Shown here in pieces: positions 39,400 to 59,661 of a stretch of 64,000 nucleotides of DNA. The notes beneath the pieces are model-generated. The model did no database searches, had not been told where the DNA came from, and saw only the letters and a list, made by a program, of their open reading frames with translations. The translations under genes were made by a program, and so were the position numbers. Every line of letters begins with the position of its first letter. Positions within the stretch are counted from its first letter, which is position 1. This DNA comes from Escherichia coli (lineage in GTDB: Bacteria; Pseudomonadota; Gammaproteobacteria; Enterobacterales; Enterobacteriaceae). The stretch lies in the NCBI RefSeq assembly GCF_003790525.1, contig NZ_CP033635.1; one strand, given 5' to 3'.

Positions 39400-39487
39400 T
39401 GGCGGTGAGGGGGGGATTCGAACCCCCGATACGTTGCCGTATACACACTTTCCAGGCGTGCTCCTTCAGCCACTCGGACACCTCACC
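39400..39487 (-). tRNA. serW: tRNA-Ser (anticodon GGA)
   Basis: Reverse complement reads GGTGAGGTGTCCGAGTGG...CCTGGAAAGTG...GGTTCGAATCCCCCCCTCACCGCCA; long variable arm. Confidence 0.9.
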
Positions 39488-53042: not shown

Positions 53043-54356
<1,314 letters not shown>

Positions 54357-54376
54357 TACCCAATTTTTCTGAATCT

Positions 54377-54399
54377 AAAAAGCGCCTGCGGGCGCTTTT
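54377..54399 (+). terminator. serS terminator
   Basis: AAAAAGCGCCTGCGGGCGCTTTT. Confidence 0.65.
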
Positions 54400-54554
54400 G
54401 CATGGTACTTAACTATATGAAAATAAATGGATTTTATTTTCATGTGTCCAGATAATGTCCATCTTTGAAGAAAAAAGTCCACAATACTGACGTTGTGGGC
54501 TTTTCTTTTTCCTGATGGTGTCGTGCCGTCAGTGCAACGAACCAAAGGGAGGGG

Positions 54555-54782
54555 ATGTTGATGTTGTTTTCCCTTCGCACCAGCTTTAAAGCCACTCTTG
54601 TTAACGATGATGGTACGCCACGGATCACGGCCGAGGTGAGGAATGTGACACCTGATGATATCGGGAAGGTGGCGGAACTTGTCAGGGATGTTTTTGGTAC
54701 TCCTTCCGGTACCTGCCGTTCAGACTCTGCGGCCAGGGTTGACAGGCAGGATGTTAACGCCGGGTGGCTTACGCGCCTCTGA
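54555..54782 (+). CDS. Hypothetical small protein (75 aa), possible distant paralogue of the 71-aa array protein
   Basis: Strong SD AGGGAGGGG before ATG; convergent with hok-like copy 1; shares the M.LF..R...GTP pattern with the 57756 ORF. Confidence 0.4.
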   Translation: MLMLFSLRTSFKATLVNDDGTPRITAEVRNVTPDDIGKVAELVRDVFGTPSGTCRSDSAARVDRQDVNAGWLTRL

Positions 54783-54932
54783 ATGATGATGCCCTCACTG
54801 GTGAGGGTGACAAAAAAGCCCTCTCAATGGCGGGCAAATCTGGTTTTTTGTTTTGTCTCTACAGGGAAAGGGCGCCATATCGGCCCACCCCAACAACCGG
54901 ATAGCGGGGAATTTCTCCCCCGCTGCGGTTTC

Positions 54933-55073
54933 TTACGGTTTACACTGCAAGAACGCCGCAAAACGCGCTCCCCAGATATCAAAGCTGAATTCACATAACG
55001 AATCGTGGACCATCCAGATGACCAGGGTTATTGTCAGGCATAAAATGCCAACAATAATCGTTTTTTGCGGTAT
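54933..55073 (-). pseudogene. Hok/Gef-family toxin homologue, copy 1, start codon ATG->ATA
   Basis: Hand-translated ...LCLTITLVIWMVHDSLCEFSFDIWGARFAAFLQCKP; the position aligned to the ATG of copy 2 is ATA (TAT at 55071-55073 on the + strand); overlapping mok-like frame 54991..55173. Confidence 0.45.
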
Positions 55074-55314
55074 AGCGCTTGCTCCTTTTACAAAGAGGCG
55101 CTAACCTTCCACTTGTCACGGTAGGAAGGGTCAGGCCTCGGTTAAACACAGATGTTTTCCGGGGCCTTTCCACATCCGGCCTTCAGGTTTTCCCTCCGGC
55201 CATCAGCCGAAAGGCACCCGTTTCTTTTTGTTGCGGCAATATTTCAGGTGTCAGTTGGGGTGGGCTGTATCTTGTCTGATGCATAAAAAAATGCCCGCGC
55301 TTTGGCGGGCAAAA

Positions 55315-55496
55315 GACAAGACTTTTCGTTTGTATATCATGGATAATGGACACCCCTTCCTGTTGTCAGGTGGCAGGCACCCGTGGTTAATCTACTGTTT
55401 TTGTGCTTTTGTCTCAACCCTGAAGTTTTCATGGAAAATCAGGGTTGCTTCATATGTGCCAGGAAGGTGCGGCTATGATAACTGCCAAAAAAAGCC
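55315..55496 (-). ncRNA. Structured repeat element X1 (candidate sRNA, subtype a)
   Basis: ~170 bp bounded by hairpins; internal perfect stems (CAACCCTGA...TCAGGGTTG, CCTTCC...GGAAGG); no SD-led ORF. Confidence 0.3.
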
Positions 55497-55525
55497 CGCT
55501 TTCCGGCGGGCAAAACAGCAATGTG

Positions 55526-55683
55526 AGTTGTCTGTCATTGATACTGGACAGCCTTCCTGTTGTCAGGTGGAAGGTACCCGTGGTTAATCTACTGTCTTTG
55601 TGCTTTTGTCTCAACCCTGAAGTTTTCATGGAAAATCAGGGTTGCTTCATGTGAACCAGGAAGGTGAGGCGATGGTAACCGCC
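55526..55683 (-). ncRNA. Structured repeat element X2 (candidate sRNA, subtype b)
   Basis: Near-identical core to X1 with a different distal end (CAGCAATGTGAGTTGTCTGTCATTGATACTGG). Confidence 0.3.
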
Positions 55684-55930
55684 AAAAAAATGCCCGCTTT
55701 CCGGCGGGCAAAACAAGGAAGTACGGATCATGTATTATTGATTACGAGGCATTCCACCATGCCCACGTTTAATTTAGCTAGTTTTCATTTTATTCACAAT
55801 ATAGTTACTTATCATATTTATGAACAAAACTGTAATTTCATCTATAGGTATAAGTGATTTGCATTAACATGTTTCTTCTGTATTGCTGTTGGTTTTCCGA
55901 TGCTGATATTTATGATACATTCAGGGGCAA

Positions 55931-56135
55931 ATGAGGTTGTTCCACAGAAACGATGTTGAGATATTTCTGCTCCAGAAAGGACAAGCTAAAAAAATAAAGT
56001 GAAATTATGATATGTCAGGGATGTTCAGGCATGTCAGTGTCTTATTAATAAACTCGTTGCTGCTGTAATAACACCAAAAAAATCAAAGCATAATCTGCAT
56101 GTTGTTCCTGATGACCCAATAACCACAAAAGAATA
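55931..56135 (+). pseudogene. Degenerate copy of the small array protein gene (frameshift/early stop)
   Basis: Begins MRLFHRNDVEI... then stops after 23 aa; the downstream DNA still aligns with the intact copy through ...CTGATGACCC(A/C)ATAACCACAAAAGAATAA. Confidence 0.4.
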
Positions 56136-56164
56136 AAAAAATGCCCGCTTTCCGGCGGGCAAAA

Positions 56165-56333
56165 CAGCAATGTGAGTTGTCTGTCATTGATACTGGACAC
56201 CCTTCCTGTTGTCAGGTGGAAGGCACCCGTGGTTAATCTACTGTCTTTGTGCTTTTGGCTCAACCCTGAAGTTTTCATGGAAAATCAGGGCTGCTTTGTG
56301 TGCGCCAGGGAAGGCGCCTCGATGGCAGGCGCA
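56165..56333 (-). ncRNA. Structured repeat element X3 (subtype b)
   Basis: Copy of X2 between hairpins at 56134 and 56333. Confidence 0.3.
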
Positions 56334-56586
56334 AAAAAAATGCCCGTGCTTCGGCGGGCAAAATAAGGAAGTACAGGTTACATGTTATTGATAAAGTAGC
56401 ATTGCTCTGTCCGTCTTTAATCTAACGAGTTTTGAGTTTTTTCACAATATTGTTACCTGTCATGTTATAGATGAAACTGCAATTTCATCTATAGGTATAA
56501 ATGATTTGTATTAATGTGTGTCCACTGTTTGTCTGCTTTCTGGTTTTCAGTTGACTGTGTTTCTGATGAATTCAGGAGGTTGTCTT

Positions 56587-56685
56587 ATGAGGCTGTTCCA
56601 CAGAAACGATATTGAGATTGAACTGCATTTCTCCTCCGGTGAGGATAAGGTTAAATCATTGTTGATGAAAAAAACAAAGATTTAA
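56587..56685 (+). pseudogene. 3'-truncated copy of the small array protein gene
   Basis: MRLFHRNDIEIELHFSSGEDKVKSLLMKKTKI*; AGGAGG SD; identical to the intact copy for 23 codons, then diverges. Confidence 0.35.
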
Positions 56686-56937
56686 TTTATTGATATAAAG
56701 GATTTGTATCAGCGTATGTCCACGCAGTGACCACATTTTCGAGAGGTAGAGTAAGCCCGCAACATTGCGGGCTTTGTCTTATAGTCTGATCACTGTTTCA
56801 AGTCGGTGAGGACACCAAAAAGAAAACCCGCAGTTTTTATGCTGCGGGTTTGTTGTTCATGTCTGTGAGATAGGGTGCCTTATCGACCTTACCCTGGCAA
56901 CCGATTGACGGGGGATTGCTCCCCCGTCGCGGTTTCC

Positions 56938-57078
56938 TTACTTCTTACATTGTAAGAACGCCGCAAACTCCGCTCCCCAGAAGCTCATCCGTATTTCGCA
57001 CAGCGAACCGTGCAATATCCAGATGATGAGGATTGCCGTCACGCAGAACGTGATGGCCGTAAGCGATTTTTGCGACAT
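56938..57078 (-). CDS. Hok/Gef-family type I toxin homologue (46 aa), copy 2, intact
   Basis: Hand-translated MSQKSLTAITFCVTAILIIWILHGSLCEIRMSFWGAEFAAFLQCKK: TM helix plus SLCE(I/L)R and AAFLxC signature of Hok proteins; fully overlapped by a mok-like frame (56945..57178). Confidence 0.65.
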   Translation of the reverse strand: MSQKSLTAITFCVTAILIIWILHGSLCEIRMSFWGAEFAAFLQCKK

Positions 57079-57335
57079 AGCACTTGCTCCTTTTCCGGAG
57101 AGGCGCTAACCTTTCACTTGTCAAGGTAATGCGGTTAGGGCCTCGGTTAAACAGAAATGTTTTCCGGGGCCTTTCCACATCCGGCCTTCAGGTTTTCCCT
57201 CCGGCCATCAGCCGAAAGGCACCCGCGCGTAATTTAACTGTTTCTTTTTGTTGCGGCAATATTTCAGGTGTCAGTTGGGGTGGGCTGTATCTTGTCTGAT
57301 GCATAAAAAAATGCCCGCGCTTCGGCGGGCAAAAA

Positions 57336-57504
57336 ACAAGACTTTTCGTTTGTATATCATGGATAATGGACACCCTTCCTGTTGTCAGGGGGAGGTACCC
57401 GTAGCTAATCTACTCACTTTGTGCCCGCAGCTCAACCCTGAAGTTTTCATGGAAAATCAGGGCTGCTTTGTGTGCGCCAGGGAAGGCGCCTCGATGGCAG
57501 GCGC
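57336..57504 (-). ncRNA. Structured repeat element X4 (subtype a)
   Basis: Copy of X1 between hairpins at 57305 and 57505. Confidence 0.3.
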
Positions 57505-57755
57505 AAAAAAAATGCCCGCTCTCCGGCGGGCAAAACAATGATCTACGTCACATTATATTGATAACCGGGCATTCCTCCATGCCCATTTTTAATTTAGCCA
57601 TTTTTCATTTTGTTCACAATATAGTTATCTATCATATTCATGAATGAAATTATAATTTCATCTATAGGTATAAATGATTTGTGTTAATATGTTTCTCCTG
57701 TCTAACTGTTTTCTCATTTTTCGATACTAGTATTTCTGATATATTCAGGGGGCGT

Positions 57756-57971
57756 ATGAGATTGTTCCGAAGAAACGATATTGAGATTGAACTGCATTTC
57801 TCCTCCGGTGAGGATAAGGTTAAATCAATAAAGGTGAAACTAAGACATGCCCGGGATGTTCAGGCGTGTCAGTGTCTTATTGATGAACTCGTTGCTGCCG
57901 GAGGAACGCCAAAAAAACAAAAATATAATCTGCACGTGGTTCCTGATGACCCCATAACCACAAAAGAATAA
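57756..57971 (+). CDS. Small basic protein (71 aa), intact copy of the array family
   Basis: MRLFRRNDIEIELHFSSGEDKVKSIKVKLRHARDVQACQCLIDELVAAGGTPKKQKYNLHVVPDDPITTKE; GGGGG SD; AT-rich promoter-like region upstream; two degenerate paralogues nearby. Confidence 0.5.
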   Translation: MRLFRRNDIEIELHFSSGEDKVKSIKVKLRHARDVQACQCLIDELVAAGGTPKKQKYNLHVVPDDPITTKE

Positions 57972-58113
57972 AAAAATGCCCGCTTTCCGGCGGGCAAAAA
58001 ACAATTTAGGTCATATTTCATCATGGATAATTAAATACTTGCCCGTGGTTGCGGGAAAGTATCTGCCGTTAATCTACTTGCCTTATGATGTCCTCTCAAC
58101 CTGATTATTGTTC

Positions 58114-58365
58114 TTAAATATCAAGATTAATCTGAGTATTCCCCCTGTGAGATCCCGGAAAATCTTCCCACGGTATCCGCTCTGTACCCTGCGGCGACGG
58201 GGCGCGTTTTGATGTGAATTTGTTAAAACCCTCCAGTGTGGTAAAGCCGATCCCGCATTCGAGGTTATTGCACTGGTAGTACTTCAGGCGAACTGTGCCT
58301 GAATCATTTTCATTGCGACTGGTGCGGATACGTGCGGATGCACCGCATAGGGGACAACGGAACAT
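58114..58365 (-). CDS. ogr: Ogr/Delta-family zinc-finger late transcription activator
   Basis: MFRCPLCG...YYQCNNLECG: CxxC...CxxxxC spacing as in P2 Ogr. Confidence 0.8.
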   Translation of the reverse strand: MFRCPLCGASARIRTSRNENDSGTVRLKYYQCNNLECGIGFTTLEGFNKFTSKRAPSPQGTERIPWEDFPGSHRGNTQINLDI

Positions 58366-58408
58366 GGCTTCTCCTTATCTGGCTGAGTGGAGATGGCTCA
58401 TTTTAATT

Positions 58409-59500
58409 TTATCCGCCTGAATCTGCTATCCATTCGGGGATTTTCGCTTCCAGCTCCAGTTGTGTGGTGAAGCCGCTTTCATCTATGATGTGCTCCACCC
58501 TGGCAATAATCCAGTCCTGATTGTCCACCTCGCTTTTAAAACCTGTTACCCTGCCGTGCATTTCGGGATACAGGTCGGCACGACCCCGTGCCAGAGTGAT
58601 GGAGAATGCCGCTGCTCCCCGCTGTAACTCCTGCCACTTTGCCGCAGCTGCACGTCGTGCGGTTTCTTCATTCTGGTAAGTCCTGCGCAGAACGTAGACG
58701 TTCCCTTCCGCGCCTTCCATGTAATCACCCTCCCGGCTGCTGCTCTTCTCCTGTTTCTGTTTCCCGGCTTCCCTGCGTCGCTTCACGTTCACTTTTTTCT
58801 TGTGCCCGAACTTCAGATCGAGCCAGTGCGCCCGGACCCCCGTATACGCATCACGGTCAGCAATGCGAAAGCGGTGACTGTCGCCGCTGCTGCGGGTAAT
58901 GGCGAACGAAGGCAGGGCTCTTCCGTCCGGCCCGGTTCCGCCACCCGGCAGAATGAATAACAGGCTGCCGTTTTTTACGGTGGCAATCGCACCCAGCATT
59001 TCAGCCATGCGGGTCAGGAAGGATATATCGCTCTCTTCGGTCTGGTCAGCGTGGTCAATTTCGATATCCATGAGGATTTCGCTTATCTGTGTCTTCAGGC
59101 CGTAGCGGTGAGCGATGGCTGACACAACCTGTTTTACGGTCACGTCGTGCCAGGATACCTCCCGCCTCACGTTGAACTCTTCCCGAAAATCTGCGCTGCT
59201 GGCGGTGATGATCAGTTTATCTGGAGGTCCTTCCCACGCAACCTCATCAACGACGTAGGTGCCCTTGTTAACCAGTGATTCTCCTCGCCAGCCAATCATC
59301 ACTCTCAGGCGTGCGCCACGTGGTGGCAACTGTAACTGCCCGTCCGTATCGTCAAGGGTGAGGGTGACGCGGTCTGCCTCAAAGGCCCGGTTATCCGTCA
59401 GGGTCAGCGTCATGAGTCGCTCTGTGAGGTTTGCCAGTGTGTTGTTGTTGATGGTGATGTCGATATCCGGTGACGGAACGGTAACTGACAGCTCTTTCAT
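58409..59500 (-). CDS. P2 gpD-like tail protein (late control D)
   Basis: ...LTLTDNRAFEADRVTLTLDD...DISFLTRMAE...SGDSHRFRIADRDAYTGVRAHW... parallels P2 D; start at MKELSV with AGGAGAG SD. Confidence 0.8.
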   Translation of the reverse strand: MKELSVTVPSPDIDITINNNTLANLTERLMTLTLTDNRAFEADRVTLTLDDTDGQLQLPPRGARLRVMIGWRGESLVNKGTYVVDEVAWEGPPDKLIITASSADFREEFNVRREVSWHDVTVKQVVSAIAHRYGLKTQISEILMDIEIDHADQTEESDISFLTRMAEMLGAIATVKNGSLLFILPGGGTGPDGRALPSFAITRSSGDSHRFRIADRDAYTGVRAHWLDLKFGHKKKVNVKRRREAGKQKQEKSSSREGDYMEGAEGNVYVLRRTYQNEETARRAAAAKWQELQRGAAAFSITLARGRADLYPEMHGRVTGFKSEVDNQDWIIARVEHIIDESGFTTQLELEAKIPEWIADSGG

Positions 59501-59661
59501 GGTGTTCTCTCCTGGTGCGTTCTGTAATGGTTTCATGCACCGCAGCGGCGTTGAATGGCTGTTTTGTTGTCGCTGTCAGGAGACAACATCAAAGGGGTGA
59601 GATTACCGCGTGTGTGGGTAATGATTACGCAAAATCAACCAGCCAGACAAGGGTGAAACAT

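Follow-up and report, generated by a model that had tools for sequence, protein, structure and literature searches.

ORF71, a probable stand-alone C-domain gene of the phrog_14142 family in the attP–ogr cargo slot of a P88-like Escherichia coli prophage

Results

A sparsely annotated cargo region beside ogr contains the small gene ORF71

We analysed a 64,000-nucleotide stretch of an E. coli chromosome (contig NZ_CP033635.1; the whole stretch is called the window here) and in particular ORF71, a small open reading frame (ORF) that lies with decayed duplicates in the cargo region of a prophage. The region follows serS (53064–54356, plus strand), a 430-aa ORF that RefSeq annotates as serine--tRNA ligase and the host gene flanking the prophage attachment site. 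Beyond serS come 3.7 kb of cargo almost without annotation, then ogr (58114–58365) and gpD (58409–59536) on the minus strand, and then tail sheath and tube genes on the plus strand. ogr and gpD, called by the NCBI Prokaryotic Genome Annotation Pipeline (PGAP) and syntenic in related phages and loci, are the first structural/regulatory genes of the prophage. Its inverted D/ogr layout and its DNA matches to P88, 500465-2, Chuche, PhiR44_2 and Xuanwuvirus/Gemsvirus identify it as a P88-like member of the P2 family. In the matching phages the stretch from attP to ogr holds exchangeable cargo (hok, Com with a methyltransferase, TagO and a zinc-ribbon protein), and ORF71 and its duplicates are placed within this slot.

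ORF71 (57756–57971, plus strand) begins with ATG and encodes a protein of 71 residues and 8.1 kDa; RefSeq lists the product as hypothetical protein WP_001236182.1. The ORF listing and this entry bear out the gene as it was proposed in a preliminary description made from the letters of the window, and the good Shine–Dalgarno (SD) sequence claimed there was located as an SD-like AGGGGG at 57747–57752. The same description called the protein basic, which holds weakly: the product is hydrophilic and mildly basic (pI 8.66), with 13 Lys plus Arg versus 11 Asp plus Glu. The leader was said to be AT-rich and promoter-like. Its AT-richness is clear, the 166 nt in question (57590–57755, plus strand) having 27% G+C compared with 42% for the ORF and 51% for the host part of the window, but the promoter is scan-dependent: the candidate CTATCA-16-TATAAT at 57629–57656 was reported by a relaxed scan and not by a stricter one. 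The leader also contains a 28-nt block, AATTTCATCTATAGGTATAAATGATTTG, with an imperfect palindrome; among the three local copies of the module this near-invariant block is identical in copy B and the intact copy C and differs by one base in copy A.

ORF71 very probably encodes the C-domain of a constrained protein family

The preliminary description regarded the protein family as unrecognised and uncharacterised. Its function is indeed uncharacterised, but the family is not absent from databases: residues 1–56 of ORF71 match positions 72–127 of the PHROG profile phrog_14142 (128 positions, function unknown) with an E-value of 4.9e-12 and 46.9 bits, and long forms of 128 aa match the whole profile (E 1e-41 to 1e-67). 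A word-indexed search for ORF71 homologues found near-identical E. coli proteins only; a phmmer search of 1.84 billion representatives found relatives of 57, 128 and 133 aa at 42–47% identity, and profile searches also link ORF71 to the 128-aa proteins. About 70 family clusters were obtained, exclusively from Enterobacterales (Salmonella, Citrobacter, Enterobacter, Klebsiella, Raoultella, Kosakonia, Yokenella, Yersinia, Pectobacterium, Pantoea, Sodalis and Symbiopectobacterium among the genera), and those carrying a name were all ‘hypothetical’ in these searches.

Family alignments define a two-domain protein with an N-domain (residues 1–71) and a C-domain (residues 72–128). ORF71 corresponds to the C-domain followed by a 14-aa C-terminal extension. 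The conserved C-domain residues M1, L3, R6, D8, E10, E12, K28, L29, R30, D34, C38 and L41 are all present in ORF71, and the family-consensus G2 and K44 are replaced by R and E, respectively. Relatives at 40–55% identity keep the motif M-x-L-[LF]-x-R-x-D-[IV]-E-[IV]-E-[LM] ... K-[VL]-K-L-R ... D-V-x-x-C-x-x-L-[IL]-D-[KE]-L. The ratio of nonsynonymous to synonymous differences (pN/pS) is 0.09–0.15 for the family C-domain (pS 0.08–0.98) and 0.10–0.37 for the N-domain; the C-domain is under strong purifying selection. Among E. coli proteins, nine variant sequences are listed, eight of them with a single substitution, giving nine amino-acid substitutions of which five fall in the non-conserved tail. 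ORF71 is very probably a real coding gene, a C-domain member of phrog_14142 carried as prophage cargo with decayed duplicates. Conservation of the DNA without the ORF, which the preliminary description had named as a sign that the ORF does not code, is not what was found.

A RefSeq product name, ‘RuvC family protein’, would instead make the family a RuvC-like nuclease of the RNase H fold. The label is attached by PGAP to two long forms (WP_133252896.1, 128 aa; L041 3001–3387 of E. coli CFIAFB20180511, and H112), and there is a short motif resemblance between APDRLNLIF in the family and LPSRLKLIY in RuvC. Most genomes, however, label the family ‘hypothetical protein’, and hhalign of the family profile with E. 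coli RuvC gave a probability of 0.14%. NCBIfam produced no match even at E 10, Pfam none, and the PDB sequence search no RuvC. At 128 aa, and more so at 71 aa, the proteins are too short for the fold and lack the N-terminal strand with the catalytic Asp; the AlphaFold models, themselves low-confidence, do not contain an RNase H fold. A RuvC relationship of the family was rejected on the hhalign result and the lack of any reproducible hidden Markov model basis, and we regard it as extremely improbable.

No remnant of the N-domain was found by tblastn upstream of the three copies in the window, where the reading frames are unrelated to it, and the idea that the region upstream of ORF71 is a decayed N-domain was rejected for the same reason. 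A second short form, the 57-aa P0010, is likewise preceded by DNA unrelated to the N-domain. Since this holds for both genes, the stand-alone C-domain has arisen at least twice. The setting of P0010 (L011 5400–5720, and L012) differs from that of ORF71: the gene follows a P4-like primase and an iteron-rich origin. In L012 it also has P2-type capsid genes as neighbours, so that the element may be an unusual, satellite-like one, or two elements may adjoin. Among the long forms, that of locus L037 is intact with a GTG start. In the main long-form clade an SD-like AGGGG or AGAGG stands 5 nt before the invariant Met72, and divergent clades have no such box; internal initiation at Met72 is possible, though unproven.

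Two dead duplicates of ORF71 and a second prophage end lie upstream

The preliminary description had reported two disrupted paralogues of ORF71, and both were recovered by repeat alignment and codon alignment. Repeats among the ORF71 modules lie far above chance (85–95% identity across 85–230 nt), and each paralogous module consists of a leader and an ORF, with the leader conserved as well as the ORF among the three local copies. Pseudogene copy A, on the plus strand, has its leader at 55715–55930 and an ORF remnant at 55931–56136; its lesions are deletions of 8 nt and 2 nt, a change of AGA to TGA at codon 30 and a shortened SD. Pseudogene copy B, also on the plus strand, has its leader at 56365–56586 and 24 homologous codons at 56587–56658, after which unrelated sequence runs to a stop at 56685. 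The homology (56587 to ~56659) ends at a second attP-type arm, and the counterpart of copy B is intact in strain SCU-115 (L004). Only the intact copy has TATAAT as its −10 hexamer; copy A has TGTAAT there and copy B has TGCAAT. Compared with ORF71, pN/pS is 0.35 at a pS of 0.35 for copy A and 0.15 for copy B. Copies A and B are real paralogues and dead duplicates of ORF71.

Two arms of the attP P' type are present on the plus strand. The first (attL P'-arm 1, 54410–54510) is AT-rich and has the repeats TGTCCAG (54445–54451) and TGTCCAT (54456–54462) followed by a hairpin/terminator (54473–54504); five further prophage ends, located at different host sites, have arms that align with it. The second (56686–56780) has TGTCCAC at 56717–56723, GTGACCAC at 56727–56734 and a hairpin at 56753–56774, and is closest to the arm of locus L034. 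Relative to the otherwise similar L034, the family gene is deleted between the second arm and a bidirectional terminator at 56824–56851. After the second arm the window continues with this terminator, hok2, X4, the intact ORF71, X5 and ogr (hok and X elements are described below). The second arm marks the junction with the left end of a second prophage, and the region is therefore a stack of two left ends.

Related strains allow these states to be ordered by copy number. CM2 (L003) carries the arm, ORF73 (a homologue of ORF75, described below), two X elements, ORF71, X' and ogr, with one copy of the gene. SCU-115 has the same arrangement plus hok1 and the dead copy A, making two copies. The window resembles SCU-115, with the ORF71 copy in that position cut after codon 24, and has three copies and arm 2. 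Recombination among the repeated 200-nt X/terminator units would have made and destroyed the extra copies, and copy B would have been cut when an older left end of the SCU-115 type acquired a second one (arm 2, hok2, X4, ORF71, X5 and ogr). Repeat recombination together with the joining of prophage left ends is the simplest history suggested by these alignments.

ORF71 shares its slot with hok genes and small-RNA-like elements

The hok2 module (56824–57224, minus strand) consists of the bidirectional terminator, hok2 (56938–57078; PGAP Hok/Gef family protein WP_000078913.1) and a sok/mok-like region (57065–57224; 46.2 bits with Rfam sok, below the gathering score). hok1 (54933–55073, minus strand) starts with ATA instead of ATG, is 50% identical to hok2 by tblastn and has no PGAP annotation; it is probably a dead toxin gene. 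Beside it, a sok/mok-like region at 55062–55219 scores 48 bits against Rfam sok, whose gathering score is 59. ORF71 itself does not match Pfam HOK_GEF, and the hok genes are ORFs of their own on the opposite strand.

It had been proposed that three of four copies of the family lie in modules with hok or X elements. All three real copies are indeed flanked by X elements and hok occurs in the two larger modules; the fourth copy, ORF75, did not survive analysis. A link through co-occurrence with hok is not supported either, hok being a frequent and not an obligatory neighbour. It adjoins the family gene, in convergent orientation, in roughly half of the distinct contexts; P88, Chuche and 500465-2 have hok in the slot without the family gene, and many loci have the family gene without hok. 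Because each occurs alone, hok and the family gene share a cargo slot and not a mechanism or dependency.

The cargo region further contains five X elements and nine copies of one terminator, all on the minus strand. X1 and X2 (55286–55480 and 55486–55680) form a tandem defined by repeat families D1, D2 and D4, with promoter-like TTGAGA-17-TAGATT sequences and intrinsic terminators. X3 (56135–56330) and X4 (57306–57502) were delimited by repeat family and alignment, and the divergent X5 (57970–58113) forms the 3' flank and terminator of ogr and is convergent with ORF71. In all eight aligned X copies the −10 TAGATT and the −35 core TTGAG (TTGAGA or TTGAGC) are invariant with a 17-nt spacing. The predicted transcript of ~95 nt has a 5' stem-loop, a conserved single-stranded UAUC(C/A)AUGA and an intrinsic terminator, with covariation that rests on one divergent copy only. 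In these features the X elements resemble small-RNA genes. Rfam does not contain them: a scan of the whole window at gathering thresholds matched a tRNA gene alone (39403–39487, minus strand), and at relaxed thresholds over 54300–58450 the meaningful matches were the sub-threshold sok regions alone, those to RyhB, AgvB and Trp-leader being terminator look-alikes. X elements occur in 30 of 5426 complete E. coli genomes, the same count as for ORF71 and, where listed, the same strains.

A plus-strand hairpin at 57567–57584 (GGGCATTCCTCCATGCCC followed by a T-run) stands between the X terminator and the ORF71 leader, with equivalents at the same positions in copies A and B. Copy A has a minus-strand promoter-like sequence, ATGATA-17-TAAAAT, at 55815–55787; the equivalent region of the ORF71 module is 57590–57640 on the minus strand. 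Hairpin and promoter-like site could together give another transcript of ~85 nt ending at the shared terminator.

These elements bear on whether the conserved feature at ORF71 could be an RNA or DNA element, such as an antisense RNA to the X5 RNA or the 3' region of ogr, with ORF71 itself untranslated. Compatible with this idea are the convergence of ORF71 on X5 and ogr, the lack of a U-tract terminator on its own strand, and the equal conservation of leader and ORF among the three local copies. In other loci, however, a proper bidirectional terminator stands between the family gene and ogr, so antisense read-through is not a conserved feature. Pairing of X RNA with the ORF71 and ORF75 leaders, the hok2 mRNA and the ogr and gpD starts gave z-scores of −1.75 to +1.37, with no significant complementarity to these local mRNAs. 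Together with protein-level conservation under saturated synonymous change across genera, this makes a non-coding explanation hardly credible.

The supposed fourth copy, ORF75 (54555–54782, plus strand), has 75 aa; PGAP annotates it as a hypothetical protein of 73 aa with its start at 54561. In the window lineage ORF75, and not ORF71, holds the first slot beyond the arm. Its loose resemblance to ORF71 did not hold up: hhalign with the family profile gave a probability of 0.07%, and the sole BLASTP similarity between the two proteins covers 9 of 21 residues in the non-conserved ORF71 tail. ORF75 was detected in E. coli only, and comparison with the L003 copy gave a pN/pS of 0.68 with no third-position bias. 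Searches of PHROG, Pfam, NCBIfam and PADLOC (the last at E ≤ 1) yielded no match, Pfam DUF6346 at E 0.1 being taken as noise. By sequence comparison ORF75 is not related to the ORF71 family, and its coding status is unproven.

The family gene occupies one end of P2-like prophages

ORF71 is carried by 30 of the 5426 complete E. coli genomes, and in all 30 the copy beside ogr is present and annotated as a hypothetical-protein coding sequence. Carriers include E. coli 135, LH10-b-1 and SCU-115. At each of three host sites (serS, copA and zapB) the module is found with the same prophage. Conclusions on the context of the wider family rest on about 25 independent loci. Wherever the host flank is readable, the Int arm sites of a P2-like prophage are followed first by the family gene, in inward orientation, and the order arm, gene, optional hok, ogr, gpD and sheath recurs in L009/10, L023–27, L029 and L034–39. 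The preceding arm comprises an AT-rich stretch, two TGTCCAC-type repeats and a hairpin, which we read as an attP P' arm; TGTCCAC we take to be the complement of the P2 Int arm consensus. ORF71 shares the att-proximal, ogr-side, inward-pointing location (in the window, L003 and L004) and is an exception in its exact position, since it adjoins ogr and ORF75 takes the first slot. In Salmonella locus L007 (6440–6800), the long form is followed by ~350 nt of non-coding DNA with dense GTGACGG/GTGATGG repeats resembling iterons or protein-binding arrays.

Structure prediction, one of the checks proposed in the preliminary description, was performed with AlphaFold2. The confidence value (predicted local distance difference test, pLDDT) was 50 with the long form and 62 with ORF71. 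In the latter model, strands at 9–17 and 20–29 form a beta-hairpin, which a helix at 32–49 follows. This topology may resemble that of integrase arm-binding domains, and the C-domain might accordingly be conceived as a small DNA-binding module that acts on the attP arm in integration or excision, or on its own palindromic leader in autoregulation. The position of the family gene directly after Int arm repeats and a hairpin at unrelated integration sites fits this idea, as does its orientation: in the circular layout of phage Chuche it would be co-directional with int across attP. The near-invariant imperfect palindrome of the ORF71 leader would suit autoregulation, and Foldseek returned weak AFDB matches to integrase N-terminal fragments (probability 0.87–0.97). 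These matches have E-values of about 1, however, and come from a low-confidence model, and similarity to the integrase N-terminus was rejected at the sequence level, hhalign with that of a P88-like integrase giving a probability of 0.14%. Further points against the idea are the acidic character of the most conserved strand (D-x-E-x-E), the nearly neutral long form, the position of ORF71 away from an arm and the lack of the gene in related phages. We consider a role as arm or leader binder distinctly unlikely.

A bolder version would make the family gene a read-out of the integration state. Lying beyond the P' arm and co-directional with int, the gene has its upstream sequence changed by integration, and some family members have almost no room for a promoter of their own. 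While the genome is circular or excised, and only then, the int operon might drive transcription of the gene; in the prophage this would fall to the host gene at the flank. The C-domain, for which the invariant internal Met72 may serve as an additional start, would target Int or the arm sites and bias integration versus excision. In E. coli the domain would have become an independent gene within an array of five phage-borne small-RNA genes, the X elements, as part of a new regulatory module. We give this scenario very little credence.

Discussion

Our best explanation as a whole, which we consider reasonably probable, is that ORF71 is a small protein gene carried as moron cargo in the attP–ogr slot, expressed in the lysogen and encoding a conflict-related binder. 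The protein would be made in the lysogen from its own promoter and would act by binding a partner rather than by catalysis. Its role would most likely lie in phage–phage or phage–host conflict, in the form of exclusion, defence or counter-defence. Taken on its own, the conflict-related binding role is a tentative proposal, made because the exchangeable slot is shared with hok/sok, a YafO toxin, the Com/methyltransferase pair and TagO-like cargo. We know of no exclusion or defence phenotype for the ORF71 family.

Several results weigh against this explanation. No function could be transferred, as Pfam (searched with the Salmonella long form P0009 and with ORF71) and NCBIfam gave no match; PADLOC-DB v2 gave none for ORF71 or the long forms at E ≤ 1, and a PDB sequence profile search of the family returned two chance matches only. 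The AlphaFold models are of low confidence, and the significant Foldseek matches in PDB, BFVD and AFDB50 were the family's own AFDB models only. A tblastn search with ORF71 and a long form against 50,697 phage records and against plasmids found no match, and the stricter consensus scan reported no plus-strand promoter in the ORF71 leader. The remaining contrary points would favour ORF71 being a non-functional relic, namely the surviving 3' half of a long form whose N-domain was replaced, with an incidental AT-rich leader and a frame that stays open only through the recency of the event. Some ‘57-aa’ E. coli relatives are 5'-truncated long forms (at L034 and L036 a long form that is truncated near residue 44 and open from Met72 was called as a 57-aa protein), indicating that loss is tolerated and that a lone C-domain can be a relic. 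Two of the three ORF71 copies in the window are decayed, the gene is rare among E. coli genomes, and D8N, a common ORF71 variant, changes a nearly invariant family residue. Yet the three paralogues share the stand-alone leader while differing at a pS of 0.35, which argues that the stand-alone form is old, and the intact copy is open with its conserved residues. This copy alone keeps the TATAAT −10 hexamer and the full SD, and the copy adjoining ogr is present and annotated in every carrier genome. P0010, which lies in a satellite-like element and has other DNA upstream, provides an independent stand-alone short form. We therefore judge the relic interpretation unlikely and retain that of a moron-type cargo gene.

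phrog_14142 was already catalogued with function unknown, and ORF71 is a stand-alone C-domain member of it. We found nothing specific in the literature on phrog_14142 or on the ogr/hok/attP cargo slot of P2-like phages. A RefSeq ‘hypothetical protein’ thereby gains a family identity and a context, and the label ‘RuvC family protein’ is flagged as unsupported. This two-domain family, whose C-domain can stand alone, is under strong constraint and has a fixed place at one end of P2-like prophages in different enteric genera; it is a tractable candidate for prophage accessory screens directed at exclusion, counter-defence or recombination control. The locus does not overturn current understanding and illustrates how an attP–ogr slot may be rebuilt by recombination among terminator/small-RNA repeats and by the stacking of prophage ends.

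Comparison with known systems places ORF71 as follows. With the other members of phrog_14142 it has in common the conserved strand-strand-helix motif and residence at a P2-like prophage end. It differs from them in lacking the N-terminal 71 residues, in its 14-aa C-terminal extension, in being 44–55% identical to other C-domains, and in adjoining ogr with an AT-rich leader of its own instead of directly following the att arm. The neighbouring hok/sok systems are unrelated to the hydrophilic ORF71 in sequence, and hok1 of the window has lost its ATG. In phage lambda, sib/tI are sequences across attP from int; the family gene similarly follows a hairpin just beyond the P' arm and is co-directional with int. 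ORF71 departs from that arrangement, lying 3 kb from arm 1 and ~1 kb from arm 2 with its own leader, and evidence of retroregulation was not found. P2-like phages carry moron cargo such as tin, old and Z/fun of P2. The slot of ORF71 is attP–ogr of P88-like phages and not the classical Z/fun or tin/old hotspots of P2, and the PADLOC searches brought out no match; like these morons, ORF71 is a single small gene with a promoter-like leader, bounded by terminators, atypical in G+C content, dispensable, patchy in distribution and housed in an exchangeable slot.

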